Positions 27,901 through 57,124 of a DNA stretch of 64,000 bases are shown in pieces. The stretch is from contig CADCGZ010000004.1 of NCBI GenBank assembly GCA_902801025.1, positions 5,568-69,567 of the forward strand, written 5' to 3'. Origin of the DNA: an uncultured bacterium (GTDB lineage Bacteria > Verrucomicrobiota > Kiritimatiellia > RFP12 > UBA1067). The translations under genes were made by a program, and so were the position numbers. Numbering within the stretch: position 1 is the first letter of the stretch; each line of letters begins with the position of its first letter. The notes beneath the pieces were generated by a model. It did no database searches and was not told the origin of the DNA. It saw nothing but the letters and a program-made list of their open reading frames with translations.

Positions 27901-27933
27901 TTCAAGAAATGCTGCGGGAGGAACATGGTATGA
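24916..27933 (+). CDS. secA: Preprotein translocase ATPase SecA
   Basis: 1005 aa. Motifs are [62 protein letters not shown] and the C-terminal zinc motif [14 protein letters not shown]. Confidence 0.97.
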
Positions 27934-30516: not shown

Positions 30517-30582
30517 TTGCGCGAAATTCACGGAAAATTTATCGCGCTTCTCACGCTTTAGATGTCCGAAAGATGGTAGAAT
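30517..30582 (+). promoter_or_regulatory. Activator-type promoter: direct-repeat operator plus -10 (GH2 operon)
   Basis: TTGCGCgaaaTTCAC (30517-30531), degenerate second copy TATCGCgcttCTCAC (30540-30554), 22 nt, then TGgTAGAAT with its -10 hexamer at 30577-30582. There is no -35-like hexamer. AAGGAGG lies before ATG 30610. Confidence 0.5.
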
Positions 30583-33600: not shown

Positions 33601-33813
33601 GGGTCGACGCTCAAGGTCGGCGAGAAGGAGGTCAAGGAGACGCGGCGCACGGACCGCGAGGTCGAGTACAACGAGCTTCCGCTCCAGCAGGGCTGGAACA
33701 AGCTCTCGATCGTCGTCGACGGCGATCGCAACGAGTTCGAGGCGGAGCTCCGCTGCAACAACAAGCCGGAATTCCTCCAGACCGTCCGCGCCTCCCTCAA
33801 GCCGCAGGAATAG
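30610..33813 (+). CDS. GH2 family glycoside hydrolase, exported
   Basis: 1067 aa with signal VVLGAVASVFLASGSSA. GH2 TIM-barrel motifs are NAVRLHAQVYP and HASVLGWSVSNEN, preceded by sugar-binding/Ig-like regions. Confidence 0.85.
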   Translation: MDHRVTSVVLGAVASVFLASGSSAEGVKFNGVFAPSEGFVNRLEKPQRAEVCLNGRWDFQGFKTPAGWKDGKGQPPELPAPAADGWDAVKIKIPSPWNVNNFCLRRSEGPDHRDFPSYPDAWRDYKMGWLRRSVTVPSYWDGRSIAVRFEAVAGECVVLVNGKKVAENFELFLPFEADVTDVVKPGETFELLVGVRGQKLFEDREGVGRRVIPAGSMWGGEIIGIWQDVTLVARPKLRVADVFVKPLVSKETLELEVTVENVGDAPAGAELGATVSDWINRAGTDVLSAPVPCWEQGMSRLGKVFGRVDVPARSSKTMTVSIPVVKGTLREWTPETPNLNSLVVSLTEDGRFVDRKAERFGWREWTIDGGKYLLNGKPIQFRSDSWHFMGVPQMTRRYAWAWFKAIKEANGNAVRLHAQVYPSFYHDVADEMGICILDETANWASDGGPKFDREIFWKNSITHLERFIKRDRNHASVLGWSVSNENKPVILHVFNRPDLMPFQEKAWADWRDTCRRLDPTRPWISSDGEEDGKGILPITMGHYGDLVHSYKAWSEIGKPWGVGEASMAYYGTPQQVEERAGSERSYASALGRMEGLAKECYDIICAQRANGASYSCVFNLAWYALKPLPFGKRDLTKAPTLEDGIFFGEYVEGRPGYQPERIGPYSSTFNPGYDPALPLWDAWPMYDAVRAAFAPEGPAWSKWSIRPERCAADSPRPVREYAEVVCVGGGKLRGVLDAQGVVFAEKVNEPAKALVFVDASSPLKSEQAAEVAELVKKGADAWVWGVTDASAESVKPIVGEGLEVAKLVRSTFIPMDRPLVRGLFNSDFYFCELQRGDAAKFSLGGEWIRSAEVEVEACRTDWREWNKKAEEMKTAAIIRTENECTAPLAVIATRRVGAAKVRVQTLFDFANSEKGYKTLSRMLANAGVKCRTVVSDPAEAFFLRDGKIMFPSVTRKTLKNIAPRKHTLEFYVYSNRPLDDLLIEPDMPKLMLWMKARGSTLKVGEKEVKETRRTDREVEYNELPLQQGWNKLSIVVDGDRNEFEAELRCNNKPEFLQTVRASLKPQE

Positions 33814-33824: not shown

Positions 33825-36485
33825 ATGAGACCACTCGTCTCAGCGTTGTGCGCATTCGCCCTGCTCCCGGCGTTTGCCGGCGTAGCGGGGCTTGACGCCG
33901 TCTCGCGCGGCGCGGACCCGACGGGTCAGCGCGACAGCGCCGCGGTGATGCAAAAGGCGCTAGACGAGCTCAACCGCGCAGGCGGGGGGACGCTGTATCT
34001 CCCGCCCGGAAAATACAGGCTCGAGAAGCCGCTTTACGTCGAGGGCGGCAATTCGATCAGGGGCGCGGGCTCTTCCGCCGCCAACTGGCCCGCCAACAGG
34101 CCGTCGATCCTCTGTGTGGCTTTCGGACGGGGCGACACCAACCTCGTCAAGAACGCGGCCGTGAAGCTCAGGGGCGGAGCATCGCTCAGGGACGTCGCGA
34201 TATGGCATCCCGACCAGCGCTTCGAAGACCCGGTGCCGTATCCTGCGAGCATCTGGGGCGACGGACACACCAGCGTAGTCGACGTAACGCTCGTCAACTC
34301 GTGGTGCGGATTCTACAACAACCACTGCTCGTCCATGCTCGTGCGCGGTCTTCGGGGCACGGCCCTGAACATGGGCATCCGCGCGGCTTATGCGTTCGAC
34401 GTTCCTCGCATCGAGCACGTCGCGTTCGATCCCGCGTACTGGGCGGCATCGGGACTCCCCGGATCGCCGAAGACTCCTTCTGCCATGCGGAAGCTCGAGA
34501 CGTGGGCCGAGAACAACCTGATCGCGATAGTCGCCGGCGAGCAGGACTGGGGATACTGGTGGGACGTGTTCGTCGACCATGCGAAGGGCGGCATCTTCCT
34601 CACGGTCGTGCCGGACGACAAAGGGGAACGCATGAACCCCGGCAACATCGCCGCCGGAAAGGTCGTGATGCGCAACGTCCAGGTAGGCATTGAGATGAAG
34701 AACGTCGGCTACCCGGGCTTCCTGCTTACGTACGGCGACATACAGGCGCGGTTGTGCTGCATGCACTACTCGAAGGTGCCGGACTACTCGAAGTTCCATG
34801 CCGTCGGCATAAAACCGTACTACAGCTGGAACGCGGCAGTGCAGGTGACGGGAGTCAAGTTCTCCGGCGCGAAGACGCTGTTCAGGTCCGACAAGGACAA
34901 AGACGGACTCATCTACTGCATCAACTTCAACGACTGCACGTTTTCGGACTGGAAGGACTGCGCGATAAGCCAGTTGCGCGGCAGTTTGGTCGCGTCCAAC
35001 TGCAGATTCAGCGGAAAGGGCGCGATACGTCCGGGCGAGAACCTCTCGCAGATAGTGCTCAGCGGCAATACGTTCTCCGGCGAGGCATTCGCAGTGAAGC
35101 CCTCCGCCTCGACGGTCGTCTCGCGCGACGACCGCGAGAAGGGCGTCGTCTCGCTCCCATACGACATGCCCGAGCCGAAGGAGCGCGAATTCAAGGGCAA
35201 GGTGTTCGACGTGCTGGACTACGGCGCAACGCCCGGAAAGGTAGACGACATCCCGGTGAAGGACAGCTCGCCGGCCTTCGCGGCTGCGCTTGCTGCCGCG
35301 GGCAAGGCGGGAGGCGGCACGGTATTTGCTCCTGCTGGAGTCTACCGCATCGCGCGCGGGATCAAGGTGCCGTCAGGCGTCGAGCTGCGCGGCAGCTTCG
35401 AGGCGCAGCACTATGGCAACTCCACGCACCGCGGCACGCAGCTCTACGTGTACGCAGGGAAGGGCGACCCCGCGTCCGCGCCGCTCATCACGCTCGAGCC
35501 AGACGCTGGTGTAGGCGGATTCACGGTGTACTATCCGGAACAGGGCGTGACGGACGACTCCTCCGCCGACGAGGCGCTGCGCGTGAAGCGCTATCCGCCT
35601 ACTGTGCGGACGGCTCCGCGCTGCCAGGTGAGGAACATGGCGATCGTCAATGCCTGGACGGCGATCGACGCGATCACGGTGAGGAGCGACGGACTTCTCG
35701 TGACGGATGTGACGGGAGGAGCTCTCGACGCAGGCGTAATCGTAGGACACGGCACTACCGGCGGTCTCTTCCGCGACATACACTTCAATTATACTGGGTG
35801 GGTCGGGCAGGGCAAGTACGAGAACCATCCGAGGGGCGACGACTGGGACAAGACGACGACGTGCGGAATGTTCGCCGACTTCACCACGCGCGTCACGCGC
35901 GGATTCGTCCTCTGCGACGCGAAGGAAGTGAAGCTTCACTCGTGCTTCTGCATAATGGTCGCCGAGGGCGTGTCGCTTGAGAAGGATCCGTACACGGGCG
36001 GATCGTTCAAGGGTTCGACGTGGGGACTTGCGTTCGACGCGAACACGAATGGGATCGTGGGGCACCGCGGCGCCGCGCCTAAGTTTGTGGCCAACTGCGC
36101 AATGGGCGTCTTCAGCCGTCAGCAGGGCGGATACTTCGTTAAGACGGAGCCTGGCTTCGCCGGCGCGATCGCGTCCGTCAATTCCGAGATCTGGTCCGGA
36201 CGCTCCCGCATCGTCGACCTTGAGGGCGGGCGCACGATACTCTCGCAGTTCCTCTCTTGGTGCTGCTACGAGGGCGTCGTGAAGAAGGGAGCGTCGCTCA
36301 CCGTGTGCGGGGCGTCGTTCGCGTCCAACAATGGGAACGACAAGGGCGAGAAGACGACAATAACATACGAACGCGGATCTTCCGGGGCCGTCTGCGGTTC
36401 CGTCGACGGACGCAGGTTCCTGAAGGTCGTTGACGAGACCGGCGGCAAACTCGCCTGGCGCAACAACGGCGTGCGGATAGACTGA
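33825..36485 (+). CDS. GH55-like / pectate-lyase-superfamily double beta-helix protein, exported
   Basis: 886 aa. It has two copies of the N-terminal signature of Pectate_lyase_3-type domains: GADPTGQRDSAAVMQKALDELNRAGGGTLYLPPGKYRL and VLDYGATPG..DSSPAFAAALAAAGKAGGGTVFAPAGVYRI. Confidence 0.75.
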   Translation: MRPLVSALCAFALLPAFAGVAGLDAVSRGADPTGQRDSAAVMQKALDELNRAGGGTLYLPPGKYRLEKPLYVEGGNSIRGAGSSAANWPANRPSILCVAFGRGDTNLVKNAAVKLRGGASLRDVAIWHPDQRFEDPVPYPASIWGDGHTSVVDVTLVNSWCGFYNNHCSSMLVRGLRGTALNMGIRAAYAFDVPRIEHVAFDPAYWAASGLPGSPKTPSAMRKLETWAENNLIAIVAGEQDWGYWWDVFVDHAKGGIFLTVVPDDKGERMNPGNIAAGKVVMRNVQVGIEMKNVGYPGFLLTYGDIQARLCCMHYSKVPDYSKFHAVGIKPYYSWNAAVQVTGVKFSGAKTLFRSDKDKDGLIYCINFNDCTFSDWKDCAISQLRGSLVASNCRFSGKGAIRPGENLSQIVLSGNTFSGEAFAVKPSASTVVSRDDREKGVVSLPYDMPEPKEREFKGKVFDVLDYGATPGKVDDIPVKDSSPAFAAALAAAGKAGGGTVFAPAGVYRIARGIKVPSGVELRGSFEAQHYGNSTHRGTQLYVYAGKGDPASAPLITLEPDAGVGGFTVYYPEQGVTDDSSADEALRVKRYPPTVRTAPRCQVRNMAIVNAWTAIDAITVRSDGLLVTDVTGGALDAGVIVGHGTTGGLFRDIHFNYTGWVGQGKYENHPRGDDWDKTTTCGMFADFTTRVTRGFVLCDAKEVKLHSCFCIMVAEGVSLEKDPYTGGSFKGSTWGLAFDANTNGIVGHRGAAPKFVANCAMGVFSRQQGGYFVKTEPGFAGAIASVNSEIWSGRSRIVDLEGGRTILSQFLSWCCYEGVVKKGASLTVCGASFASNNGNDKGEKTTITYERGSSGAVCGSVDGRRFLKVVDETGGKLAWRNNGVRID

Positions 36486-36492
36486 GGAATTA

Positions 36493-36558
36493 TTGCGCAA
36501 TTTTCACGGTGATTTTTGCGCGGATTTGACTCTACATCTGCGATGGCTTTGCTATAAT
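36493..36558 (+). promoter_or_regulatory. Activator-type promoter: direct-repeat operator plus extended -10
   Basis: TTGCGCaattTTCAC (36493-36507), TTGCGCggatTTGAC (36516-36530), 22 nt, TGcTATAAT (-10 at 36553-36558). AAGGAGG lies at 36575-36581 before ATG 36587. Confidence 0.55.
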
Positions 36559-36586
36559 AGTGGCAAACATCGACAAGGAGGGTCGT

Positions 36587-39500
36587 ATGAAACATGCGCA
36601 AGTCAAAAAGCATCCAGAATTTGTCCCGTCCATGAGGTGCCTTGCTGCTGCGGCATTTGCCGGCATGGCGGCATTCTCCGCCGGCGCGGCAAACAAATTT
36701 TGGACGCCGCAGAATGGCTCGACCGACATCAGCGATCCAAGCAACTGGGGTGGCGCTCTTCCCGGAAACGGAGATCTTATGATGTTCCGCGGAAATGACG
36801 GGTTGTCCGGAGACTATGCGGTGAGGATACCTGCCGCAACGGCCGAGAACCCGTATCAAAGCAAGGCAGGGGTTTTCTTCGGCAACTTGAACGATGGCCA
36901 GACTGTGACAATTGACGCGACGGGCACCTCCTGGCTTGTCATGCGCGATGATGGACAGCCGTGGGGCTATCCGATGCGCGCCTGGTTGTCGGATCACATC
37001 TTCGACATTGACAGTGCCGGAGATGCCAGCAAACCGGCCAACGATTTTGCCTTCTCGTTCTCCAACGGCACCATGACCTTCAAGCGCGACTCTGCAAATG
37101 GCTCCGCGCTTGTGTTCAACGGCGACTTCAACATGGCAGTCGCTCCCGATGGCACGGAGAATGCGCACAGAACGGTTCTCTTCCACGATGTAAACGCCAA
37201 CAGCAAGAATTCCAAGATCATCTTCCACAGCGGCGAGTCGACGCTGCGGTGGATACAGTTCCGCGGCAAGACGGAGGGCAACGAGTTCCGTGTTGACGGA
37301 GGACGCCTCCATGTCCTGAGCGGACTGGTAATCAATGAAGATTCCGCGAACTATACTACAGATGCCTACATGCATGTCACGGGAGACGGCCAGGTGTCTG
37401 TAGATTCTGGGGCTCTGTGGATCGGCCGCAACAACGACGGGCGCGGCGTGCTGCGAATCGACGGGAACGGCAAGTTCACCATGACCGACGGGACGATAGT
37501 CACATACTTCCCGGATGGCGCGGCGCAGACGGGGCTCCTTTCAATCGGAGGAAACGGCGAGTGGAATTCCGTGAAGAACATCAATGTCGGCAACAATGGC
37601 GGCACAGCCGACATCCTTGTCGAAGGAAACGGTTTCTTCAACCATTCGGGATGGTTCAACTTCGGCTCCCATAACGGCTCGCATGTCTCGCTCACGATGA
37701 AGGACCAGGCACGCGCAATAGTTACGAGCGCAGCGATGGTCAAGGACGCCGGTTCCGGCTCTACCCGCACGGGTGTTGTCGACCTGAGCGGCGACTCGGT
37801 TCTCCAGATCGCCAGCAACGACCAGTGGGCCAACTCGGCCGGGTCCGATCTGACATTGAACATGACGAACAATGCGACGCTCAAGGCCAAAAAGGCGAAC
37901 GGCGAACGCCATTTGATTTTCGGCAACAACAACGGCGCCGACATCAAGCTGAATCTCGCGGGCGGGACGATATGCGACTACGACGGCAACGAGCTCATAC
38001 ATCTGCAGCTCAAGGGCGGGGCCCAGAGCGTTTACAACTTCTCCGGCGTGACGGTCAATACCGAGAACTTCATCATCGAGGGCAAGCAGGACACGTCCGC
38101 TCCGGACGCCTGGCATATCGCCCATCAGACGGCTGGTACGATCAGCGTCCGCTGGCATGGCTCAGGCGACGGTCTCGACATCCGCGGTGGCAACGGGCGC
38201 AACTGCATGTACCTTCTCGAGGGCGGTACGCTCAACGTCGGCAACATGATTCGCGTTGGACATAACGTTACCGACAGCAGTAAACAGTGGCGCTCAGTGT
38301 TCCGCCAGACGGGCGGACAGGCGAACATTAGCGCGAACGTGAACATGTGCGACTCCGCTACGATGGCCGAGTTCGAGCTTCTAGGCGGGCGTACGCGTCT
38401 CTATTCCCTGCGCGGCTGGAGCCAGAGCGTTGCGCGCAAGGCGGGCGGCGCATGGGCGACGGCACTCTTCGACGGCGGCACAATTGAGCCGTGGGCAAAC
38501 GGAAACACTACCATATATACCATGCCGGAACTTCGCCTCGGCGCCAATGGCCTCACGTTCGACACGCTTGCATACGACAACATCTCAATTGACGCGAAGT
38601 TCCAGAACGAGGGCGAGGGGACGGATGATGAAGCCGAAGGCCTCTTCGTGAAGACCGGAACCGGTACCCTCAAGGCGAACATGCTTGAGACAAACGGACT
38701 GTACGTCGATCGCGACATTCGCAGCTACCATTCCAGGACGCGCATCGACCAGGGCAAGCTCATTCTCACCAAGGCTGCAGACGTCGCTTTCGGAAAGAAC
38801 ATCACGGTGAAGGGCGGCGCCACGCTCTCGCTCGAGGGAACGGCGGCGACGCTGACGGTCGATACGATTACGCTCGGCGACGGGCATGGCTTCGCCGTCC
38901 TCAAGCTTGACGCGGGCGATACGGTCGTCGTCGAGGCGGCGAACGGCGTCACGGCCAACTGCGGCGCGATCGACGTGCCGTGGAAGTCCACCGATGGAAA
39001 TCATGCCGTCTTTACGTGCAAGCAGAGTGTCCAAGTAGGGGAACTCGACAAGATCGCAGTCCACGACGGCGATGCGACAAAGGACTATGCATGGACAACC
39101 GAAGTCGACAACGACACCGGCTACACCATCTGCTCCGTCACCGTAGCGCCCAAGGGTACGCTCACGAAGACGATCACCTATTCCAGCGGCGCTGTCACGA
39201 CGAACGGCACGGGCAAGGTCTCCGGCATCATCGCCGAAGAAACTGGCACGCAGAGCGGCGAACTCGTTCTCTCCAGCACGGCTTCGGTTTCCGTTGACGC
39301 CGATCAGACGATGACGCTCAACGGTCCGCTCGTCGGCACGGGCGTTGAACTCAAGAAGACGGGATCCGGCAAGCTCGTCGTCGATGGCTCGAATCCTGAC
39401 TTCTATGGTTCATTTGCGTCAGGTGGCGGTGCCTTCGAGGTCCTGTCCGCTGCCGGGTTCGGCGCGAATCCGGTTAACTTCCCGCTCGTTCTCGGCGGCG

Positions 39501-41113
39501 GAACGCTGCGCTACACGGGTTCTGGAGAGGTTGTCTTTGACGCCGCCCTGCGCATCGCGGCGGGCGCGAAGAAGCAGCAGGTGATTCTCGACAACGAGGG
39601 TGACATGACGTTCAAGTCGACGGAATACGTTCAGGGCGGATTCGTCAAGACGGGCGTCGGCACGCTCACGTTCGCTTTGCCCGCCGGCAAGTTCGCCCTG
39701 GGCAGCGGCGATTCAAGCGAAGACATCGGTGCCAACGCCGGTCAGGTCAGTCTGCCCGCGAACGGCGATTCGCCTACGTCCAACGACGGGCTCTACGGCG
39801 TTACCGTGCTTGAAGGCATGCTCAAGGTCGTTGGAGAAGGCAGGGACGTGACTACTCTCGAGACGCGCAACCGCGCGCTGCTCGGCGGTGGATATCCGGC
39901 GGAGACCGCGGCTAAGCTCGTCGTCGAGAATGCACGCGTCAACTGGGGAGCAGGATCGCGCACGGCTACGTTCTGCCACGACGTGCCCGCAGACCGTCCT
40001 TCGCCTGAAATCTGCCTCACGAACGCCATGCTTTGGAGCGATTCTCCGATGCTCGGATACTATGCGTATGGGAATAATGCCATGGTGAAGCTGTCGATGA
40101 AGGATTCCGAGTACTACGGACACTACAACTCGCGTGTCGGATCCGGCACGGTCGGAGTGATGGTCGACGCGGACAATTCGCAGATGCACAGCGACGGACA
40201 GGTCGGTTGGGCGATTAACGCGAAGACGATCCAGGCCGACTTCCACGGCGCGGACGCGGAATTCGGATCGTTCGACAAGACCCAGACTGCCGACAACAGC
40301 AACGGCGGGCGTTTCGTCGCGGCCGGCAATACGACGGGACTGATCCAGCTCCGCGAAGGCGCGCGGATGAAGACGACACGCGGCATTGTGTTCAACAACA
40401 GCGAAATTGCGGTCGTCTTCGACGGCGGCATCTTCGAGATCGTTCCGCACAACACGCTTCTCAACACCACCTCCACATGGACGAACGTGCAGGGTGGATT
40501 TACGACGCAGGGCTCGGGATTGACCGTCGACATCTGCGAAGGATCTACGCACGCGCTCAATTTCCCCGTCAAGGGAACGGGCAAGGTCGTCAAGACCGGC
40601 GAGGGCACATTTGAACTCGTTTCGGCGCGCGCAGAGGGCGAGAAGCTCCTCCAGTACACCGGCGGGACGGTCGTCTCGAACGGCACGTTCGTGATCGACG
40701 GATCGCTCGTCGCGGACGGCGCGAAGTCGTTCGAGGTCGCCGAGGGTGCGATACTCGACCTGAACGAGACGACGCTTGAGGGCGCGACGATCGCCGGCGC
40801 AGGCGTCGTCACGAACGGCACGCTTTCGGCGGCGACGATCGCCTATGGTGAAGACGCGCTGCCGACGTTCACTGATGTAACTTTCGACGGAACGCTGACT
40901 GTCGACTTCGACAAGACCGACGAGGATACGCTCGACAAGACTGCGGCGAAGGCCGGAATCGTCGTCGCGCGCTATACTGGCGAAGCGCCGGCCAATCTCA
41001 GGGTCAAGTCCGTCAACACGGGCATCGAGCGCGTCAGGACCGCCGTCGTCTGCGAGGGTGGAGACGTAATCGCGAAGATGACCCAGTCTGGCTTTTCCGT
41101 TGTCATCCGCTGA
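36587..41113 (+). CDS. Giant exported PATR (autotransporter-associated beta-strand repeat)/beta-helix surface protein, paralog 1
   Basis: About 1508 aa from ATG 36587. Signal RCLAAAAFAGMAAFSAGAA, N-terminal W..NGS..DPSNWGG motif, and repeated KTG(T/S/V/E)G(T/K)L-type units (VKTGTGTLKAN, KKTGSGKLVVDG, VKTGVGTLTF, VKTGEGTFEL). Composition is N/G/T-rich. The GTG 36560 start in the track would include the SD. Confidence 0.85.
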   Translation: MKHAQVKKHPEFVPSMRCLAAAAFAGMAAFSAGAANKFWTPQNGSTDISDPSNWGGALPGNGDLMMFRGNDGLSGDYAVRIPAATAENPYQSKAGVFFGNLNDGQTVTIDATGTSWLVMRDDGQPWGYPMRAWLSDHIFDIDSAGDASKPANDFAFSFSNGTMTFKRDSANGSALVFNGDFNMAVAPDGTENAHRTVLFHDVNANSKNSKIIFHSGESTLRWIQFRGKTEGNEFRVDGGRLHVLSGLVINEDSANYTTDAYMHVTGDGQVSVDSGALWIGRNNDGRGVLRIDGNGKFTMTDGTIVTYFPDGAAQTGLLSIGGNGEWNSVKNINVGNNGGTADILVEGNGFFNHSGWFNFGSHNGSHVSLTMKDQARAIVTSAAMVKDAGSGSTRTGVVDLSGDSVLQIASNDQWANSAGSDLTLNMTNNATLKAKKANGERHLIFGNNNGADIKLNLAGGTICDYDGNELIHLQLKGGAQSVYNFSGVTVNTENFIIEGKQDTSAPDAWHIAHQTAGTISVRWHGSGDGLDIRGGNGRNCMYLLEGGTLNVGNMIRVGHNVTDSSKQWRSVFRQTGGQANISANVNMCDSATMAEFELLGGRTRLYSLRGWSQSVARKAGGAWATALFDGGTIEPWANGNTTIYTMPELRLGANGLTFDTLAYDNISIDAKFQNEGEGTDDEAEGLFVKTGTGTLKANMLETNGLYVDRDIRSYHSRTRIDQGKLILTKAADVAFGKNITVKGGATLSLEGTAATLTVDTITLGDGHGFAVLKLDAGDTVVVEAANGVTANCGAIDVPWKSTDGNHAVFTCKQSVQVGELDKIAVHDGDATKDYAWTTEVDNDTGYTICSVTVAPKGTLTKTITYSSGAVTTNGTGKVSGIIAEETGTQSGELVLSSTASVSVDADQTMTLNGPLVGTGVELKKTGSGKLVVDGSNPDFYGSFASGGGAFEVLSAAGFGANPVNFPLVLGGGTLRYTGSGEVVFDAALRIAAGAKKQQVILDNEGDMTFKSTEYVQGGFVKTGVGTLTFALPAGKFALGSGDSSEDIGANAGQVSLPANGDSPTSNDGLYGVTVLEGMLKVVGEGRDVTTLETRNRALLGGGYPAETAAKLVVENARVNWGAGSRTATFCHDVPADRPSPEICLTNAMLWSDSPMLGYYAYGNNAMVKLSMKDSEYYGHYNSRVGSGTVGVMVDADNSQMHSDGQVGWAINAKTIQADFHGADAEFGSFDKTQTADNSNGGRFVAAGNTTGLIQLREGARMKTTRGIVFNNSEIAVVFDGGIFEIVPHNTLLNTTSTWTNVQGGFTTQGSGLTVDICEGSTHALNFPVKGTGKVVKTGEGTFELVSARAEGEKLLQYTGGTVVSNGTFVIDGSLVADGAKSFEVAEGAILDLNETTLEGATIAGAGVVTNGTLSAATIAYGEDALPTFTDVTFDGTLTVDFDKTDEDTLDKTAAKAGIVVARYTGEAPANLRVKSVNTGIERVRTAVVCEGGDVIAKMTQSGFSVVIR

Positions 41114-41140
41114 CGGGTAAGATGGCAGAAAGACTAAAGC

Positions 41141-41168
41141 GACAGCGCGGCAAATGTGCCGCGCTGTC
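41141..41168 (+). terminator. Intrinsic terminator hairpin
   Basis: GACAGCGCGGCA-aatg-TGCCGCGCTGTC (12-bp stem) followed by GTTGTTTGG. Confidence 0.7.
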
Positions 41169-41208
41169 GTTGTTTGGTACACTGCATGCAATATAGGCAA
41201 GGAGACGG

Positions 41209-41274
41209 TTGCGCAATTTTCACGGTGTTTTTTGCGCGGATTTGACTCTACATCTGCGATGTCTTTGCTATAAT
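41209..41274 (+). promoter_or_regulatory. Activator-type promoter (duplicate of 36493-36558)
   Basis: TTGCGCaattTTCAC (41209-41223), TTGCGCggatTTGAC (41232-41246), 22 nt, TATAAT (41269-41274). Confidence 0.55.
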
Positions 41275-41302
41275 AGTGGCAAACATCGACAAGGAGGATC
41301 GT

Positions 41303-44300
41303 ATGAAACTTATGCGCAGCAAATCGTATGCAAAATTCATCTCATCAATAACAGGTCATTTTGGTGGTCGGATTTCTGCAAGCTACGCACTATTCGCCTT
41401 TCTCGGCGCAGTGTTGCCGACGGCCTCGTTCGCGCTGACTGAGGTCAAGTGGACCAATTCCTCGGGCGGATCGTTCCTCGAGCCGACGAACTGGAACGGC
41501 GGCGAGTTGCCTGTCGGCGGGACGAGCAAGGGAACACTTGACCTCGATGCCGGTTACACGGTGACGTTCCCGGCCGGCGAAACCGCCAGCTTCTCTCCGC
41601 AGTTCAAGACGCCATCCAACGCTGCGGGCGCGACCGAGCTGAAGAAGCTTGTCCTTGACTTCCAGGGGCCCTTCGAGTGGACTGACTCCGAGTCGGAAAT
41701 CTACGAAGGCGAGCCGTTTAAGTTCTATTCGAATGGAGGGCATTTCTTCAACTGGGAGAGCTGGAACAAGAAGATTGGCCCGGCGGTCGTGACAAATGCA
41801 TTGGTCTCGCTCTGGGTCGACAAAGAGAAGAACAACAAGGACAGCATCCACATGCGCATCGAACGAGGCGCATTCAACATGCGAAAGGACAAGCAGAACG
41901 GCAAGATAGTAATCGGACATGGTGCCCCGGAAAACAACGCCCTTGAAGTCGTCTACGACAACTGCGCGACGGGAGTGTACGGCTACGTCGATATGCGCAT
42001 GAGGGCCTCCGACTCGCTGTTTGCCGTTAGGGGCGGGTCATGGGTTTCGTTCTCAAACGATTTCGATTTCCCCGGTGTTACTGAAGACACCTATTATACC
42101 AACCGGGTGGAGGTCTCTGGCGAAGGTTCATACCTCTACGCTGGTGCATTCCGCTTCCTTCACGGGAAATGCCCCAATCGCGACATCGGCGTCGTTGTCA
42201 AGGAAGGCGGCGTCTTCGAGGTTGGCGAACTGCGGCAGCAGTCGTCGTCTGCCGGATGGATCAACGTGACTGACGGCGGCGTTCTGCGGCTCAGGAGCAC
42301 CGGCGGCAACTTCATGAAGCAGGCGGACAGCACCATCGACCTCTGCGTTACGAACAACGGCGTGCTGGAGTTGGCCGGCAACGGTAGGTGGGGTTGGAAC
42401 GAGTGGAACGACACGTGCAAGGTCAACCTACACACGGCGGGTGGAACTGTCCGCCTTCCGTCGGGCAACAACTTCAACTGGAACCGTGACTGGATCGTGG
42501 AGGAAGGAACAGACATAGTCATCGACGGTAACCTATATCTGTCGACGTCCGTCACGAACAACGATCTCGGCATCACGGTCGACTTTTCGGCGTCGGGCGC
42601 GCGCGGTTCGGGTTCGTTGTACCCCGGCAACAACTATCCGTGCAAGCTTGTGATTACGAACAACGTTGTCGACGTACACTATGTCAAATCCGCCAACCAG
42701 GAGGCTGCCGCGACCGAGATACTCGTCGGCGGCACTGGACGCCTGCGCACGGACGGTCTTGACATCGGAATACTGGGCACGGCTACGTTGAACATCCGCG
42801 ACGAAGGCGTTGCCGATGTTGGGTACTGCCGTATCGGCTACGGAACTGCCAACACCGACCGCGAAGTGGTTGTCAACATCGAGGGCGGACGGCTCGTCTG
42901 CACGAACAGCCAGATCAACGTCTGCGACGCGCAGCGCATCTGCCGCATCAACCTGACGGGCGGCGAACTCTATTCAAAGCAGACGCTTGGATGGAACAAT
43001 GCCCACTACCACAATCCGGGCGGGTACGGCTATGCCTACTTTGTCGGCAACGGCGGCACGCTGAAGGCACCGACCTCCAACAACGACAACTTCTTCGGCG
43101 CATTCGACGACGCGAAGGTCGGCGCAAAGGGGCTCACGGTCGATTCCGACTATACGGTCGGAATCCGCCAGACGTTCGCCAACCTCGACAACGAGAGCGG
43201 AAAGATCGTCTTCATCGGCGCAGGGACGAAGCGGATTCTTGCGACGGCATGGAACGGCTACACGCCCGGCACGTCCACCCACTCTTATACGGTCGTGGCC
43301 GGCGGCACGCTTCTTTTCGAGACGGGTGCGGACTGGCAGACCCATCTCGTCGTGACGAACGGCGCAACAGCTTCGACCGTCGGCGGCTGCACGGGCCTCA
43401 CGCTCAAGGGGTTGACGCTTGGCGACGCGGACACGGTGGGAACATTGGCCGTAGATCCGGCGGATGTCATTGTGGTCGACGGACCCGTTTCGCTTCCGAA
43501 CGGCAGCCTCTCGTTCTCGGCCAACATGGCCAACGGCACATACGGAATTCTCAAGGTGAAGGATCCGGAGACGAACTTCCCGGTGGCTGAGCAGAAGGCG
43601 TGGGCGAAGATGATGATCTCGGCCGGTCGTGGAAGCGGGCACAGCTACACATTCGAGACTTCGGTCGACGAGACGACTGGCGACATGACGCTTTCGGTTG
43701 TCGTGGATGATGTCAAGGATATCACGGGAGATGCCGTTTGGACAGGCGCGAACGGAACGGCATGGTCCGACGGCTCAAACTGGGGTTCTGCCGCGAAGCC
43801 AGGTGTGCTCGACTCCGCCGTGTTCTCGTCTGAGACGGCTTCGGCGTCAGTTTCGCTTGGAACGGACGAACTGATTGGCGCGGTCGAGTTCTCGGCTGAA
43901 CAGTCCTATGCGATCTCCGGCAGCGGTTCGCTCGCGTTCTCCGATTCCGGGAATGCCTCGATCACGGTGACGAAGGGAAGCCATGAGATATCGGCACGCC
44001 TCGACAATTCCTTCCCGCTCCCTGTCGTAACCGCTGAGGGGGCCAAGGTGACGGTTTCGGGGGCGATGAGGCCTGCTGGCCTTGTCAAGTCCGGTGACGG
44101 CAACCTCACGTTGACGCAGAACAAGGTAGACGCGCTCACACTTTCCGACGGCGTCGTCACGTTCGCTGGCAGTGGCGAGAAGACGGTCTCGAGCCTTTCG
44201 CTTGGTGCGGCGTCCAAGAACCGCCAGGTCGGAATCAAGACCGACGTCGCAACGACGGTGAAGGAGTTCTCGCCAACTGCTGGCCTGGTCGTCAAGGCTG

Positions 44301-45829
44301 GCGGACAGCCGCTTGTGATCGAATCCAAGTGGGTGGACTTCGCCCCGGCGGAAGGTCCCTCTGGCAACAACGCCTACTCGACGGACTACACCTTCAGCGA
44401 GACGGGTGGCGTCACCCAGGCCGGTGCGGCGGTCGTCGTTACCGAGGGCAACCTCACCTTGCGCGGCACGGCGGCTTCGCCGGCAAACGCGATGTTCGCC
44501 ACTGTGCACAACGTCATGGTCGGCGTCCGGAACAAGGACTGCTCGGTTGATCCGTCATTCACGCTCGACGGCGCGCGGCTCCACGCCGACAAGCATACGC
44601 GCATAGGCGCGGCGTACGACAAGGACGGCGCCGGGTGGCAGACGGCGTCGATAACCATCGACAATGGCTCCTATGCACGCTTCGACACGATGCATATCGG
44701 CGGCGACATCGGCAACGTCGATCTCGACAACCCGCCGCATGTCTACATCACCGTCGACCACGCGAGCCGCATCTCGGCATGGTATTCGTTCAACATCAAT
44801 AATTCCGGTCGTAGCGACAGGCTCCCGAAGATGCTTGTGAATATGCTTGTCGACCACGGATCGGAGCTTGTCGACTATACCGGCAACAACGGCGTGTTGA
44901 TCAAGGCTCCCGGCGTGGATGTGAAGTTTGACAATCATTCAGTCTTCGGACGCCAGACAGCCGATTGGAGCGCGGCCGTGAATCCCGGACGGATCACCTT
45001 CGAAGGTGAATCCTTCGACGACCATGTCCGGTTCTACAACGGCTCGCGTTTCCTCTGCTCAAACTTGCTCTACAATGCCACGGCTGACTGGGCCACGAAC
45101 AATCTCCACTTCGCGGACGGCGAGTGGTTCGCCGGCGATGCAGACTTCGACTTCGCGTTTAAGAACGGACACAGGATCGCGGTTCACGCCGAGGGTGCGG
45201 GCCTCAAGCTCAATCCGCCGGAAAACAGGACATGGACGATGCACACGATACTGACTGGAACCGATGTGGTGAAAGGCGGAGAAGGCACGCTTGTCTTCGA
45301 TGTTGCGAAGTATCTGAACAACAGCACGGATGTGTCGTCGTTGACCGTAAACGCACGGCAGTCTGCGACGCTCGCGATCACCGGGAAGCTCGACGTCAAG
45401 GCGGGCCAGGTCGAAATCGCGGACGGCGCGGCCGTTTCTGGCGACTGTGCGCTCGCCGTCGCGTCCGGCGCAACGGTGGACTTGGGCGGCAACGCCGTCT
45501 CGTTCACGGCGCTCTCCGGCGCGGGAACCGTCACGAACGGCACGCTTTCGACGACGCTGGAATATGGCGACGGAACGGTGCTGCCGACGCTCAATGGCGT
45601 AGACGGTACGCTAACCGTCGACTTCGGTCGTACGGCGGAGAATCCGCTCGACATGGCTGCGGCGAAGGCCGGAATCGTCGTCGCGCACTACACGGGCGAC
45701 GCACCTGTGAATCTTAAGGTTAGGGCAGTCAACACCGGCATCGCGCGCGCCAGGGCGACTGTTGCATGCGAAAACGGTAACGTTTTGGCGAAGATGACCC
45801 AGACCGGATTCCTGGTGTTCATCCGCTGA
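41303..45829 (+). CDS. Giant exported PATR/beta-helix surface protein, paralog 2
   Basis: About 1508 aa from ATG 41303. Hydrophobic signal ASYALFAFLGAVLPTASFA and the W.NSSGG...EPTNWNGG motif. A second WTGANGTAWSDGSNWG motif occurs mid-protein. PATR-like units include VKSGDGNLTL and VKGGEGTLVF. The C-terminal ~105 aa are homologous to paralog 1. Confidence 0.85.
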   Translation: MKLMRSKSYAKFISSITGHFGGRISASYALFAFLGAVLPTASFALTEVKWTNSSGGSFLEPTNWNGGELPVGGTSKGTLDLDAGYTVTFPAGETASFSPQFKTPSNAAGATELKKLVLDFQGPFEWTDSESEIYEGEPFKFYSNGGHFFNWESWNKKIGPAVVTNALVSLWVDKEKNNKDSIHMRIERGAFNMRKDKQNGKIVIGHGAPENNALEVVYDNCATGVYGYVDMRMRASDSLFAVRGGSWVSFSNDFDFPGVTEDTYYTNRVEVSGEGSYLYAGAFRFLHGKCPNRDIGVVVKEGGVFEVGELRQQSSSAGWINVTDGGVLRLRSTGGNFMKQADSTIDLCVTNNGVLELAGNGRWGWNEWNDTCKVNLHTAGGTVRLPSGNNFNWNRDWIVEEGTDIVIDGNLYLSTSVTNNDLGITVDFSASGARGSGSLYPGNNYPCKLVITNNVVDVHYVKSANQEAAATEILVGGTGRLRTDGLDIGILGTATLNIRDEGVADVGYCRIGYGTANTDREVVVNIEGGRLVCTNSQINVCDAQRICRINLTGGELYSKQTLGWNNAHYHNPGGYGYAYFVGNGGTLKAPTSNNDNFFGAFDDAKVGAKGLTVDSDYTVGIRQTFANLDNESGKIVFIGAGTKRILATAWNGYTPGTSTHSYTVVAGGTLLFETGADWQTHLVVTNGATASTVGGCTGLTLKGLTLGDADTVGTLAVDPADVIVVDGPVSLPNGSLSFSANMANGTYGILKVKDPETNFPVAEQKAWAKMMISAGRGSGHSYTFETSVDETTGDMTLSVVVDDVKDITGDAVWTGANGTAWSDGSNWGSAAKPGVLDSAVFSSETASASVSLGTDELIGAVEFSAEQSYAISGSGSLAFSDSGNASITVTKGSHEISARLDNSFPLPVVTAEGAKVTVSGAMRPAGLVKSGDGNLTLTQNKVDALTLSDGVVTFAGSGEKTVSSLSLGAASKNRQVGIKTDVATTVKEFSPTAGLVVKAGGQPLVIESKWVDFAPAEGPSGNNAYSTDYTFSETGGVTQAGAAVVVTEGNLTLRGTAASPANAMFATVHNVMVGVRNKDCSVDPSFTLDGARLHADKHTRIGAAYDKDGAGWQTASITIDNGSYARFDTMHIGGDIGNVDLDNPPHVYITVDHASRISAWYSFNINNSGRSDRLPKMLVNMLVDHGSELVDYTGNNGVLIKAPGVDVKFDNHSVFGRQTADWSAAVNPGRITFEGESFDDHVRFYNGSRFLCSNLLYNATADWATNNLHFADGEWFAGDADFDFAFKNGHRIAVHAEGAGLKLNPPENRTWTMHTILTGTDVVKGGEGTLVFDVAKYLNNSTDVSSLTVNARQSATLAITGKLDVKAGQVEIADGAAVSGDCALAVASGATVDLGGNAVSFTALSGAGTVTNGTLSTTLEYGDGTVLPTLNGVDGTLTVDFGRTAENPLDMAAAKAGIVVAHYTGDAPVNLKVRAVNTGIARARATVACENGNVLAKMTQTGFLVFIR

Positions 45830-45851
45830 CGGTTAGATGGCAGGAAGACCA

Positions 45852-45887
45852 AAGCGACCGCGCGGCACATTTGCCGCGCGGTCGCTT
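45852..45887 (+). terminator. Terminator-like hairpin
   Basis: AAGCGACCGCGCGGCA-catt-TGCCGCGCGGTCGCTT (16-bp stem). The T-run (ATTATTTTT) starts only about 6 nt later, so intrinsic termination is plausible but not classical. Confidence 0.55.
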
Positions 45888-45941
45888 CACGATTATTTTT
45901 GCGTGTAATTCACGGTGCGGACGGCTTGAATTTGCTATTAT
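45876..45941 (+). promoter_or_regulatory. Activator-type promoter, leaderless transcript predicted (GH43 operon)
   Basis: Degenerate distal copy GCGCGGtcgcTTCAC (45876-45890, inside the terminator arm), proximal TTGCGTgtaaTTCAC (45899-45913), 22 nt, TGcTATTAT (-10 at 45936-45941). ATG 45948 is 6 nt later. Confidence 0.5.
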
Positions 45942-45947
45942 TATAAC

Positions 45948-48671
45948 ATGAAAACTTTTAAAGGATGCTTGATGGCGGCTGCAGTCTGCGCAGGTGCTCT
46001 TTCGGCCTATGCGGACGCGGTTATTGGCCGTTTCCAGACTGGTTCCTCCGTCGCGACAATGAGCCGCGAGTCCTCCGGCATTATGCGTGCGACCATAGAG
46101 GCGCCGAAGGCAATCGGAGTCGCAGGAAAGGACGCCGCGCGGCTGTCGCTCATGTTCGACATCCGCGTGACGCGCGCGGACGGGGATGTCGGGCCGGAAT
46201 CGCTAAAGCTCGTGCAGGGCGGTGGCGTTAGCATGACAGAACCCGCCGGCGTCGAGGTTTTTCGCGCGGGGTCGCCGGTCTCCGAAGGCGTTGCGCCGAT
46301 CATGCGGCGCGCGGGCGGATGGATGACGGCATCGTATTCGCTCGCTAAGATGAAGCCGTGCGAGAGCGGAATCGGCACACTCTTCCTCTCGCTCTACAAC
46401 GACCTTCCCAAGCACGGCATCCCGTGCGGCGTCGCCGTAGAGATTCGCAACGCCCGCATAACTGAGATGAGCGCCGAAGAGCTCGCGCTCGCCGCGGAGA
46501 ATGAGGCGCGGGAGTCTGACAAGCCGCTGACGGTGTGCAATCCGATCGACCTCGAGTACATGATCCAGCGGCGCAAGCAGCGCAAGGATGGATCGTTCGA
46601 ATCAGTCATGACGGAGTCAGCGGACCCTTCGCTCGTCGTCTTCAAGGGCGAATACTGGCTCTTCGCATCGCACGGCGACGGATACTGGGTGTCGAAGGAC
46701 ATGGGGAAGTGGGAGTTCATCCCGGTCGACGTCGAGAAGGGCATCCTCTCCGAATTTCGCCGCTACGCACCCGCGACGTGCGTCGTCGGCGATTGGCTGT
46801 ACCTTACGCATTCGGAGTCTGGCAAGATCATCCGCACGAAAAACCCGCGCGACCTCTCCGCATGGGAGGAGGTGGGGCGTCCGCAGGGCTGGATGGACCC
46901 CGGCATGCTCTACGACGACCCCGCGACAGGCGGCGACGGATACGTCTATCTCTACAAGGGCCTATCCCACTTCGAGCCGATTGACGTAATCAAACTGGAC
47001 CCGAAGGACGGAATGAAGAAGGTCGTTCCCGAGAACTACCACTGCGCGTGGCCGGACCGCAACAACCGCGGCTTCGAGGTTCCAGGCGACGACAGCCTCG
47101 GATACGACGGGAAGGACACGCAGGAGGGCGCGTGGCCGGTGAAGTACAACGGACGCTACTACTTGACCTGCGCCGTGCCCGGAACGCAGTACGCCAGCTA
47201 CTGCGACAACTGCTACGTCGGCGACTCGCCGATTGGTCCGTTCCGTCTCTGCATGAACAGCCCCGCGATCTGGAAGTCCACTGGCTACACGCGTGGCGCG
47301 GGACACGGGTGCCTGTTTGAGGATTTGAACGGACACTGGTGGAAGGTCGACACGTGTCGCCTCTACGGCTTTGACCGCCGTCTTGTCCTCGTTCCGGCGA
47401 TGTTCGACGACAAGGGCGACCTCTACACGAAGGCGGAGCTGAGCGACTGGCCGTTCTTCGTTCCCGGGACGGCGAAGGATCCGTTCAACGCGCCCGGCCC
47501 GGGCTGGGGCCTCCTCTCCTGCAACAAACGCGCCGTCGCGTCCTCCAACTCCGGCACGGCTTCCCTTGCGTTCGACGAGGACATGGGGACGTGCTGGGCC
47601 GCGGCGAGCGGGAAGCCGGGCGAATGGCTCGCCGTCGACCTCGGCAAGGTGTACGGCGTGAGGTCCGTGCAGGTGAACTTCACGTCGATCGACGCGACGG
47701 CCGGCGGACGCGGCGAGGGCTGGGCGTACCGCTATCTCGTCGAATTTTCGCAGAACGGGAAGGACTGGTTCAAGGCGTTCGACCGTTCGGGCGCGAAGAC
47801 GTTTCGCCAGCACGAGTACGTCGAGTTCGCGAAGCGCGTCGGCGCGAGGTTCGTGCGCGTCACGAACAAGGGCGATTCTCCGGCAGGTTCGCGTTTTGCG
47901 ATCAACGGACTTCGCGTCTTCGGCGAGGGCGGCGGTGCTGCACCCGATGCGGTGGACATGTCGCGCGTCTTTGCTGACCGCCGCGCGGGCAACAACCGCG
48001 CCGCGGGACTCGCCTGGCCGAAGGCGAAGGGTGCGCAGGGGTATATCGTCCGCTATGGCATCGCGCCTGACAAGCTGTACACGCACTACCAGGTGATCGG
48101 CTCCGAAAGCGTCGTCGTCAATACTCTCATCCGCGGCGTAGACTACTACGCGACAGTCGACAGCTACAACGAAAGCGGCGTAACGCGCGGAACGAAGACC
48201 GTGCGCCTGCCCGCGACGGAGCAGCTTGTCGAAGGCTACGACATGCGCGGGGACAGTCCCTCGCCCGCGATCACAAACCGGGTCGCCGGAGTTGCGGTTC
48301 ATGAGGCGGAGAAGGCGAAGTTCGCGGGCGAAGGCGTGAAGCACGAGTACGAGGTCCGCGCGTCCGGCGCGAAGGCCGTCTGGGGGCTCGGCGCGAAGGG
48401 GACGCGCGTCGACTTCGCGAAGGTCGAGTCGCATAAGTCCGGCGCGGCGACGATGCGCGTCTCCTACGCGACGCCGTTTGACGCGAAGGTCGGCGTTTCG
48501 GTCAACGGCGGGAAGGCTGCGGAAGTGAAGCTTCCCGCGACGCGCGGCTGGCCGACGTACATGACGGTCGATCTTCCTGTTGACGGGCTGAAACGTGGCG
48601 CGGATAACGCGATCCGCATTGAAGGGCTTGGCGACAGATTCCATCTCGACTACATCCAAGTGCTAAATTGA
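45948..48671 (+). CDS. GH43-like glycoside hydrolase with F5/8 type C (discoidin) and C-terminal CBM6/35-like domains, exported
   Basis: 907 aa. Beta-propeller signature ADPSLVVFKGEYWLFASHGDGYWVS, discoidin-like GTCWAAASGKPGEWLAVDLGKVYGVRSVQVNF, and a C-terminal lectin-like block ending HLDYIQV. Confidence 0.85.
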   Translation: MKTFKGCLMAAAVCAGALSAYADAVIGRFQTGSSVATMSRESSGIMRATIEAPKAIGVAGKDAARLSLMFDIRVTRADGDVGPESLKLVQGGGVSMTEPAGVEVFRAGSPVSEGVAPIMRRAGGWMTASYSLAKMKPCESGIGTLFLSLYNDLPKHGIPCGVAVEIRNARITEMSAEELALAAENEARESDKPLTVCNPIDLEYMIQRRKQRKDGSFESVMTESADPSLVVFKGEYWLFASHGDGYWVSKDMGKWEFIPVDVEKGILSEFRRYAPATCVVGDWLYLTHSESGKIIRTKNPRDLSAWEEVGRPQGWMDPGMLYDDPATGGDGYVYLYKGLSHFEPIDVIKLDPKDGMKKVVPENYHCAWPDRNNRGFEVPGDDSLGYDGKDTQEGAWPVKYNGRYYLTCAVPGTQYASYCDNCYVGDSPIGPFRLCMNSPAIWKSTGYTRGAGHGCLFEDLNGHWWKVDTCRLYGFDRRLVLVPAMFDDKGDLYTKAELSDWPFFVPGTAKDPFNAPGPGWGLLSCNKRAVASSNSGTASLAFDEDMGTCWAAASGKPGEWLAVDLGKVYGVRSVQVNFTSIDATAGGRGEGWAYRYLVEFSQNGKDWFKAFDRSGAKTFRQHEYVEFAKRVGARFVRVTNKGDSPAGSRFAINGLRVFGEGGGAAPDAVDMSRVFADRRAGNNRAAGLAWPKAKGAQGYIVRYGIAPDKLYTHYQVIGSESVVVNTLIRGVDYYATVDSYNESGVTRGTKTVRLPATEQLVEGYDMRGDSPSPAITNRVAGVAVHEAEKAKFAGEGVKHEYEVRASGAKAVWGLGAKGTRVDFAKVESHKSGAATMRVSYATPFDAKVGVSVNGGKAAEVKLPATRGWPTYMTVDLPVDGLKRGADNAIRIEGLGDRFHLDYIQVLN

Positions 48672-54582: not shown

Positions 54583-54623
54583 CTGCCATCGCGTTGTGAC
54601 AGTTGCTGAATCGAGGTGAACCG

Positions 54624-56990: not shown

Positions 56991-57056
56991 TTGCGTAATA
57001 TTCACGATTTATTTTGCGCTGTCGTCACGGCACGGGCAAAGTAAAAATTGTATAAT
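56991..57056 (+). promoter_or_regulatory. Activator-type promoter: direct-repeat operator plus extended -10
   Basis: TTGCGTaataTTCAC (56991-57005), TTGCGCtgtcGTCAC (57014-57028), 22 nt, TGTATAAT (-10 at 57051-57056). A leader of about 60 nt runs to ATG 57125. Confidence 0.55.
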
Positions 57057-57124
57057 AGCATTGTAAATTTGCCTTGCCGTGGTGCACGGCTCGGCGCTCA
57101 ACGCAAAACGAAAGGTCAGCACAT

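Follow-up and report, generated by a model that had tools for sequence, protein, structure and literature searches.

Two adjacent, collinear paralogues with predicted beta-helix rods and a family-specific C-terminal domain in a carbohydrate locus of a Kiritimatiellae bacterium

Why would a bacterium place two large exported proteins of equal length side by side among its polysaccharide-degrading enzymes, under nearly identical control regions? The question is raised by two genes, P1 (36587-41113, + strand) and P2 (41303-45829, +), in a 64-kb stretch of contig CADCGZ010000004.1 from an uncultured bacterium of the Kiritimatiellia lineage RFP12. The full 64-kb stretch is called the window here, and all positions are numbered within it. 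Each gene encodes 1508 aa; the P1 product comprises a Sec signal peptide, a beta-helix rod and a C-terminal domain, and P2 is its collinear paralogue. Kiritimatiellae and related bacteria of the Planctomycetes-Verrucomicrobia-Chlamydiae (PVC) group are prominent polysaccharide degraders in the rumen, the gut and the sea. To our knowledge, the SusC/SusD machinery, by which Bacteroidota capture glycans, is missing from them, and our literature searches found nothing on how Kiritimatiellae contact or hold their substrates. We give slightly better than an even chance to the following reading: P1 and P2 are collinear beta-helix paralogues with a tail of their own and a shared promoter, they evolve by modular recombination, and they presumably form surface rods for contact with glycans.

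The open reading frames (ORFs) of the two genes (36560-41113 and 41276-45829) run for 1517 codons each from an upstream GTG and are the largest in the window, as an earlier sequence-only reading of this DNA had noted. The likely starts are the ATG codons at 36587 and 41303, each 5 nt 3' of an AAGGAGG Shine-Dalgarno sequence, which gives the 1508 aa. The same reading had claimed that every landmark of the first unit recurs 4716 nt later, that the copies differ at only three positions from the operator to codon 3, and that similarity collapses there, returns near the C-terminus with a gapless end and runs past the stop codon into a hairpin. Direct comparison reproduced all of its numbers; the descriptions that required correction were the scrambled core, the PATR label and the equal length. 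Segments 36493-36593 and 41209-41309, offset by 4716 nt, differ at 3 of 101 positions (36512, 36546 and 36582). Outside this copy, mismatches are dense at 36481-36492 and again from 36594, the second base of codon 3. Similarity resumes between 40785-41169 and 45507-45884 (75% nucleotide identity, E 2e-69), a region that covers ~110 C-terminal codons. The last 75 residues, from DGTLTVDF, align without gaps, and the similarity extends beyond the stop codon through a GC-rich hairpin. The equal length of P1 and P2 looks coincidental, because the P2 protein of a related contig that is ~98% identical to this region (L011) has 1510 aa.

Between their ends, P1 and P2 have diverged strongly. Synonymous sites are saturated, body identity is 23%, and the blocks that BLASTP recovers are collinear (27% identity across 356 aa, and 23% in the N-terminal part). 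When a set of full-length P1 orthologs (51-99% identity) was compared with a set of P2 orthologs (87-99%, plus one at 42%), hhalign aligned 1309 columns spanning positions 1-1509 of both profiles at 28% identity (probability 100, E 6e-74). The cores are neither scrambled, as had been claimed, nor unrelated proteins. This full-length alignment indicates that P1 and P2 are anciently diverged paralogues, collinear from end to end.

P1 was modelled with AlphaFold2 as two halves, with a 37-row alignment for each. Both half models (pLDDT 91.7 and 91.2; pTM 0.87 and 0.86) are all-beta and consist almost wholly of short strands. For both halves, the best Foldseek matches in the PDB are Hbp, SepA, EspP, EspC, IgA1 protease, Hap, pertactin and Ag43, with polysaccharide lyases and phage tailspikes at lower ranks. 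Both P1 and P2 are read as long right-handed beta-helices of the autotransporter-passenger type, which bears out the beta-helix architecture proposed earlier. The models thereby establish the fold class; a specific kinship to autotransporter passengers is not established. After the helix, the P1 model contains a domain of ~75-125 aa with 4-6 strands and one helix, and no beta-barrel. The last 8 residues of this domain are left without structure in the model, and mean pLDDT drops to 58 in the terminal 10-residue block. At the other end, P1 and P2 begin with long Sec signal peptides, read from the sequence.

The PATR label given to these proteins is weak. A few K/R-x-G-x-G-x-[LFV] motifs are present (five in P1 and two in P2), but the Pfam threshold is not reached. 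P1 has one PF12951 match of 17.2 bits, under the 27-bit cut-off, and P2 has none; relatives score 20-23 bits, and a precomputed PF12951 match was found only in the family protein P0016. Membership in the PATR or autotransporter families thus fails at the Pfam thresholds. The right-handed beta-helical passenger domain of type Va autotransporters is seen in the AlphaFold2 models and the Foldseek matches, whereas their barrel of ~250-300 aa (PF03797) does not appear in Pfam scans of P1 and P2. Sequence searches of P1 and P2 against PDB chains returned nothing at E<=1, and NCBIfam assigns neither P1 nor P2, nor any of five unknown proteins nearby, to a family. Against viral structures, Foldseek gave only weak, generic beta-helix tailspike matches (best E 0.02), and there is therefore no sign of a phage origin.

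The conserved C-terminal module noticed in the two genes proved to be the hallmark of a whole family. In P1, the last 75 aa (40886-41110, +) end in SGFSVVIR, and in P2 (45602-45826, +) they end in TGFLVFIR. A tail profile built on the last 125 residues (A3) was searched against 1.84 billion representative proteins and matched 390 clusters at E<=1e-3, including 120 at E<=1e-10. Among the full-length matches listed (1100-2000 aa), the profile lies at the C-terminal end in all except P0182 and P0188. In 119 full-length members, the terminal heptad follows the pattern G-[FLM]-x-[VLI]-[ILV]-[VILF]-[RK], that is, G-h-x-h-h-h-R with h hydrophobic; 114 of them have G at position -7, and 109 have R or K at position -1. 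Family-invariant columns are mostly glycine, and no conserved acidic or basic cluster is evident from the column list. The members come from metagenome-assembled genomes (MAGs) labelled Kiritimatiellae, Lentisphaerae and Verrucomicrobia. A 5-sequence tail alignment found 12 GTDB loci, and a word-indexed search with the tail profile returned fragments only.

No existing family model accounts for these proteins. Neither Pfam nor NCBIfam has a model that covers the family when whole P1 and P2 are searched, and the isolated tail domains gave no match, only noise, even at E<=10. P1 and P2 combine a signal peptide, a beta-helix body of >1000 aa and a ~125-aa tail that matches A3 and carries the terminal motif. 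The family consists of Sec-exported proteins of 1100-2000 aa with a short C-terminal domain (~75-125 aa) that has a hydrophobic end. In one representative-library protein (P0155, 1987 aa), a GDSL/SGNH esterase domain is inserted at 387-566, upstream of the rod and tail, and the scaffold can therefore carry a catalytic module. By analogy, the tail may be a sorting or anchoring signal, an idea we infer because the domain is small, always terminal and found on diverse bodies, and because its hydrophobic strand is unpaired in the monomer model. Literature on Kiritimatiellae combined with autotransporter, beta-helix, PATR or RFP12 contained no description of the family that we could find. The tail domain and the overall combination are new; the parts (passenger-like beta-helix, sorting-type domain, mosaic surface gene and carbohydrate-active enzyme (CAZyme) regulon) are of known kinds.

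Members also occur close together elsewhere. In L007, 11425-17079 contains P0043 and a 1884-aa member ending in IPFTIIIR. A Lentisphaeraceae MAG (L016) has two adjacent members in consecutive ORFs, and L013 and L014 also carry close pairs. A multi-copy or clustered arrangement is therefore common and not special to the window.

How the pair evolves is best seen where the same locus has been sampled in related contigs. L010 contains the same syntenic locus, with the glycoside hydrolase family 2 (GH2) gene, the rhamnogalacturonase-A-like gene, a P1 allele and P2. Its flanks are 93-100% identical to those of the window, and its P1 core falls to 38-61% nucleotide identity, which confirms the variable core described earlier. 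From 5' to 3', identity is 89-99% to 36670, 38-61% to 38170, 74-89% to 39500, 39-59% to 40570, and 87-100% thence into P2. At the protein level, identity to the window P1 (W1), taken in bins of 100 aa, alternates within single proteins between levels of 30-55% and 90-100%. By the Nei-Gojobori method, synonymous divergence (pS) per block between W1 and the L010 allele lies anywhere between 0.00 and 0.76. The variance of third-position divergence in 50-codon bins is 0.023-0.033 for P1 and P2 versus 0.004-0.005 in three flanking enzyme genes, and the observed value (~6x that of the flanking genes) was reached in 0 of 5000 permutations. Within P2, blastn fails to align a patch at 41826-42272 (+; ~aa 175-323) with orthologs whose remaining sequence is 89-95% identical; third-position divergence in this patch is 0.5-0.68 versus 0.02-0.1 in the rest of the gene. 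In addition, one 100-codon bin at ~42500-42800 (P2 aa 399-499) has pN 0.05 and pS 0.01 in comparison with L005. The patch and this bin may correspond to exposed or receptor-contact surfaces.

Such comparisons portray the P1 body as a patchwork of old, diverged segments that differ between contigs at one fixed locus. Divergence is uneven along the unit rather than uniform, and the block-wise jumps in synonymous divergence point to recombination, not to positive selection in place. The diversifying selection suggested by the sequence-only reading is, in the strict sense, not shown: the dN/dS ratio (omega) of P1 and P2 is ~0.1-0.6, compared with 0.05-0.18 in the flanking enzymes, synonymous divergence varies by block, and omega exceeds 1 in only one 100-codon bin of P2, which contains few changes. 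As for cassette exchange, also suggested, the window contains no silent cassettes: when it was searched in full with both units by blastn and tblastn, only the P1-P2 matches and the hairpin copies were recovered. The donors are therefore apparently alleles or paralogues elsewhere. Cassette-based antigenic variation of the pilE/pilS, vls or tprK type was rejected for the same lack of silent donor cassettes in the window.

The C-terminal domain follows a history of its own. W1 and P0008 are 99% identical over the 250 aa that precede the tail and 49% identical within it, whereas W1 and P0014 share 59% of the body and 99% of the tail. Mean identity between the P1 and P2 families is 57% for tails and 23% for bodies; within the P1 family, the corresponding values are 53% and 61%. 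In P0037, a P2 ortholog, the final 30 residues are P1-like. To judge from these protein comparisons, the C-terminal domain recombines separately from the body.

Control elements link the pair to the enzymes around it. Upstream of P1, the operator (36493-36538, +) consists of two direct-repeat units with a 23-nt period (TTGCGCAATTTTCACGGTGATTT / TTGCGCGGATTTGACTCTACATC). It leads into a promoter-like site (36531-36558, +) with TCTACA, a 16-nt spacer and TATAAT, in which a preceding TG forms the extended -10 element TGCTATAAT at 36550-36558. The P2 operator (41209-41254, +) lies within the 41209-41309 copy, and a promoter scan found the same TCTACA, 16-nt spacer and TATAAT with TG at 41247-41274 (+). 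The motif TTGCGNNNAWTTCACGRT is the first of the two direct repeats (TTGCGnnnAwTTCACGrT, period 23 nt), which are followed at a fixed distance by the extended -10 TGnTATAAT. The motif occurs at five sites in the window versus 0.35 expected, all on the + strand: upstream of P1 and P2, of the GH2 gene at 30610-33813 (motif at 30517-30534), of the GH43-CBM gene at 45948-48671 (45886-45916) and of the GH2-malectin gene at 57074-60355 (56991-57008). These positions vindicate the claim that P1 and P2 share an operator with the neighbouring GH genes. None of the five sites falls in the initial 30 kb of the window, where the identified housekeeping genes lie.

The same repeat and -10 layout heads GH, esterase and family-member genes in related contigs (L001, L002, L005, L007, L009, L013-L015 and L027); in one of the contigs, from JGI, it precedes a 1113-aa protein ending in RGLHIIVR. 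Five matches to the exact 19-mer operator turned up in a metagenome scan. Two of these, L025 and L027, overlap and represent a single real operator in front of a further family member. The remaining three are probably chance matches, with differing GC or no further similarity. The element has the appearance of an operator that serves a glycan regulon throughout the lineage. The placement of the direct repeats against the -35 position hints at an AraC/XylS-type or response-regulator-type activator. No Rfam family was matched anywhere in the window, which means that the conserved leader is not a known riboswitch.

The GC-rich hairpin beyond the stop codons is found after P1 (41137-41169, +; 13-bp stem), after P2 (45852-45887, +; directly followed by the GH43 operator) and, as a copy of the same element, after the GH2-malectin gene (60383-60416). 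The three window copies of GCGAC(C/A)GCGCGGCA...TGCCGCGC(G/T)GTCG are 91-94% identical. The hairpin is a recurrent terminator or REP-like element, and its recurrence partly explains why P1 and P2 remain similar beyond the stop codon. A similar hairpin follows the GH2-malectin gene in L001.

The setting of the pair is a carbohydrate locus. From 30.6 to 60.4 kb, nearly all genes lie on the + strand and nearly all encode CAZymes by Pfam, including three GH2 genes. Upstream of P1, the GH2 gene (30610-33813, +) heads a pair with a gene for a rhamnogalacturonase-A-like beta-helix protein (33825-36485, +). Downstream of P2 are a GH43 gene with F5/8 and CBM35 domains (45948-48671, +) and a GH2 gene with an AbfB domain (48681-51476, +). 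Further genes encode a SASA-type esterase, a beta-lactamase-fold protein and a GH87/GH28-like beta-helix protein, and the GH2 gene with a malectin domain lies at 57074-60355 (+). As in Bacteroidota-type polysaccharide utilization loci (PULs), the CAZyme genes are clustered and apparently co-regulated, with the shared operator at five sites. However, the adjacent SusC and SusD pair of such loci is missing: Pfam matched no SusC-like TonB receptor and no SusD-like protein in 30 scanned ORFs of the window.

Family members were found among CAZyme genes in all related contigs examined. Close relatives are flanked by GH2-malectin, SASA, GH3, GH43 and GH92 genes, and distant members by GH116, heparinase II/III-like, GH43 and GH87-like genes. 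In L001 and L002, which have no adjacent pair, the P1-type gene comes after a GH2-malectin gene. In L005 and L006, P2 orthologs head a GH43 / GH2-AbfB / SASA group with no P1 upstream. The P1-P2 tandem arrangement is present in L009, L010, L011 and L012.

In this setting, a surface or glycan-capture role of P1 and P2 is plausible, and it is favoured only because of the conserved CAZyme neighbourhoods and the shared promoter motif. An outer-membrane partner encoded elsewhere would recognise the tail for sorting or anchoring, and the rod would thereby be displayed on the cell surface. A sugar-responsive activator of the type that overlaps the -35 region would induce P1 and P2 jointly with the enzymes, and the rods could act as the cell-surface contact or glycan-tethering element of SusC/SusD-free polysaccharide loci. 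Exposure of the rods to phage or host factors might then favour recombinant alleles. A bolder version holds that the tail is the address tag of an undescribed PVC surface-display or secretion route resembling the C-terminal domain of type IX secretion system (T9SS) cargo, that its cargo of ~30-nm beta-helix rods is the substrate-contact organelle of SusC/D-free loci, and that tag, promoter and rod segments are independently exchangeable modules; we consider this version rather unlikely.

Several points weigh against the glycan-contact reading. Surface location, glycan binding and co-expression of P1 and P2 are putative, as is tail homogenisation within a genome, which we infer from metagenomic proteins. 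The Foldseek scores are weak to modest (best E 4.8e-4, TM ~0.3), as is expected for very long, bent helices. An omega of 0.1-0.6 shows relaxed purifying selection, and positive selection is not demonstrated. The operator could be a general promoter element of the lineage and not a regulon-specific site; the loci compared are all CAZyme-rich. Finally, no partner of the tail domain was identified, and none is conserved in adjoining genes.

The same observations can be read in other ways. P1 and P2 might themselves be catalytic beta-helix CAZymes that represent a new polysaccharide lyase (PL) or GH family. Beta-helix proteins within CAZyme clusters invite this explanation, and among the Foldseek matches of lower score are PL6 alginate lyase, K1 capsule lyase, phage tailspike depolymerases, GH110 and GH28. 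Nevertheless, P1 and P2 have no Beta_helix, pectate-lyase/Pec_lyase or GH28 match in Pfam, whereas three enzymes of the window (9899-12646, 33825-36485 and 54603-56981) are detected by such beta-helix models. The top structural matches are non-catalytic passenger stalks, the mostly glycine invariant columns reveal no acidic or basic cluster, and both the 23% body identity of the paralogues and the omega of mosaic alleles (0.2-0.6 versus 0.05-0.18 in flanking enzymes) depart from what the enzymes show. We regard a catalytic role as quite unlikely. It is a little less improbable, though still unlikely, that P1 and P2 are general envelope coat or phage-interaction proteins (an S-layer-like fibre, a receptor or a decoy) that lie next to CAZyme genes merely because such genes are dense throughout the genome. 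Extreme mosaicism with hypervariable patches is typical of surface targets of phage or immunity, the family is large and multi-copy, and because all recovered contigs are CAZyme-rich, they offer no background density for comparison. Yet the promoter motif is specifically common to the GH genes and absent from the housekeeping region, the CAZyme neighbourhood recurs around distant members in other PVC-labelled MAGs, and one member is fused to a GDSL domain of the carbohydrate-esterase type. Classical type V autotransporters or two-partner-secretion (TPS) adhesins would account for the passenger-like fold, the long signal peptides and the marginal PATR match. However, the region after the helix is only ~75-125 aa, no TPS or ESPR model matched in Pfam, and no TpsB/Omp85 gene is adjacent in any locus examined. 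Since the C-terminal beta-barrel is missing, the classical autotransporter reading fails, and we give this explanation hardly any weight.

A further disagreement concerns the near-identical control regions, which could reflect strong functional constraint instead of conversion or recent copying. Constraint would fit the conservation of the operator and -10 element over many genes and genomes, and the P2-type region is well kept at the lone P2 ortholog of L005, with ~10 differences. In contrast, the non-motif spacer and the 5' untranslated region are also near-identical in the window, within the same 3 of 101 differences, and identity ends abruptly on both sides. The alleles in related contigs are more telling. 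In L009, the P1 body is 99-100% identical to that of the window, but its promoter, leader and signal-peptide codons are of another type, common to the P1-like genes of L001 and L014; promoter and leader differ from window P1 at ~1 position in 3. Conversely, the promoter type of both window genes also occurs at the lone L005 ortholog, and the two paralogous copies in the window are closer to each other (3 differences) than P2 is to that ortholog (~10). Constraint as the main cause therefore strikes us as improbable. Because the L009 P1 differs while the L005 P2 shares the type, the alleles suggest that, in the lineage of the window, L010 and L011, P1 acquired a copy of the P2 control region once the genes had become neighbours. 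The exchange or gene conversion at the 5' end that had been proposed is thus supported.

Comparison with better-known systems places the glycan-contact reading in context. Many type Va autotransporter passengers are adhesins. Like P1 and P2, passengers such as Hbp, EspP, SepA, pertactin, Ag43 and Hap are Sec-exported, long right-handed parallel beta-helices with occasional PATR-like K-T-G-x-G-x-L rungs. Unlike them, P1 and P2 lack the 12-stranded translocator barrel and any above-threshold autochaperone or PATR domain, end in a short family-specific tail, belong to a PVC-group host and lie in CAZyme loci. T9SS cargo proteins of Bacteroidota, such as gingipains and SprB, are large secreted surface proteins with a C-terminal sorting domain. 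The P1/P2 family resembles them: a small beta-rich domain at the very C-terminus is all that is conserved across the family, and the bodies that carry it are highly diverse, one of them having an esterase domain inserted. We know of T9SS from Bacteroidota and the Fibrobacteres-Chlorobi-Bacteroidetes (FCB) group, not from Kiritimatiellae. Assignment to T9SS cargo was rejected, as neither the whole proteins nor the isolated tails matched Por_Secre_tail, TIGR04183-type models or the T9SS type A/B sorting domains, and the terminal motif differs. In the 64-kb window and the short contigs at hand, no secretion machinery of this type was identified.

Autotransporter-associated beta strand repeat proteins (TIGR02601 / PF12951) of Verrucomicrobiota and Planctomycetota often carry PEP-CTERM. 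They share with P1 and P2 the superphylum, a giant beta-helical secreted body and N-terminal motifs of the W-x-N-W type. A MAG survey lists a protein of that name, assigned CBM57, from a Kiritimatiellae RFP12 genome (PMC10904984). In contrast, P1 and P2 fall under the PATR threshold, have no PEP motif, transmembrane helix or basic tail, and end in G-h-x-h-h-h-R. They were also rejected as PEP-CTERM/exosortase substrates, with no PEP motif, no 20-residue hydrophobic span and no NCBIfam match.

Surface glycan-binding proteins (SGBPs) of Bacteroidota PULs (SusE/F-like) are lipoproteins that capture substrate at the cell surface. They are like P1 and P2 in being encoded inside polysaccharide loci, apparently co-regulated and highly strain-variable, and capture is the role proposed here for P1 and P2. 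However, P1 and P2 are unrelated to them in fold and size and are not lipoproteins, and the window has no SusC/SusD pair. Mosaic surface-protein genes such as pneumococcal PspA and Neisseria Opa/PorB are shaped by homologous recombination. Block-wise jumps in divergence that include synonymous sites, conserved flanks and a fixed locus are common to these genes and to P1 and P2. The window differs in having no silent cassettes, repeats or phase-variation tracts, with donors apparently in other genomes, and the host is a gut commensal whose genes lie in a metabolic locus. The family of several hundred clusters is a concrete candidate both for glycan capture and for a surface-sorting signal specific to the lineage. 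A clean natural example of modular recombination of promoter, body blocks and tail in the metabolic locus of a commensal emerges from the population data, and it bears on the tracking of strains and on phage-host work in the rumen.

The remainder of the window provides some additional observations. Its G+C content is 62%, and the closest relatives of its large proteins are from MAGs labelled Kiritimatiellae bacterium, many with records labelled rumen or gut (RUG, Goat_Rumen, Sheep_Rumen and STEW19). At 60834-62048 (-), a regulator with Peripla_BP_3 and an AraC-type helix-turn-helix (XylR-like) is divergent from a major facilitator superfamily (MFS) sugar transporter gene (62164-63555, +). This regulator is a candidate for the operator; nothing ties it to the motif, which was not found in the intergenic region between the two genes. 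Two long ORFs of 601 and 416 aa at 2378-5358 (-) have arginine/proline-rich N-termini and no Pfam match; they may be spurious in high-GC DNA, which would leave ~3 kb with no identified gene. Six + strand ORFs at 13182-24763 and 29199-30395 (870, 583, 707, 606, 719 and 398 aa) gave no significant Pfam match, and the five that were scanned also gave no NCBIfam match; several have signal-peptide-like N-termini. A beta-helix/Y_Y_Y protein is encoded at 9899-12646 and SecA at 24916-27933. At 5340-8404, an HPr kinase/phosphorylase gene lies upstream of a gene for enzyme I of the phosphotransferase system (PTS), a PEP-utilising enzyme, which places PTS-type regulatory components beside the CAZyme-rich region.

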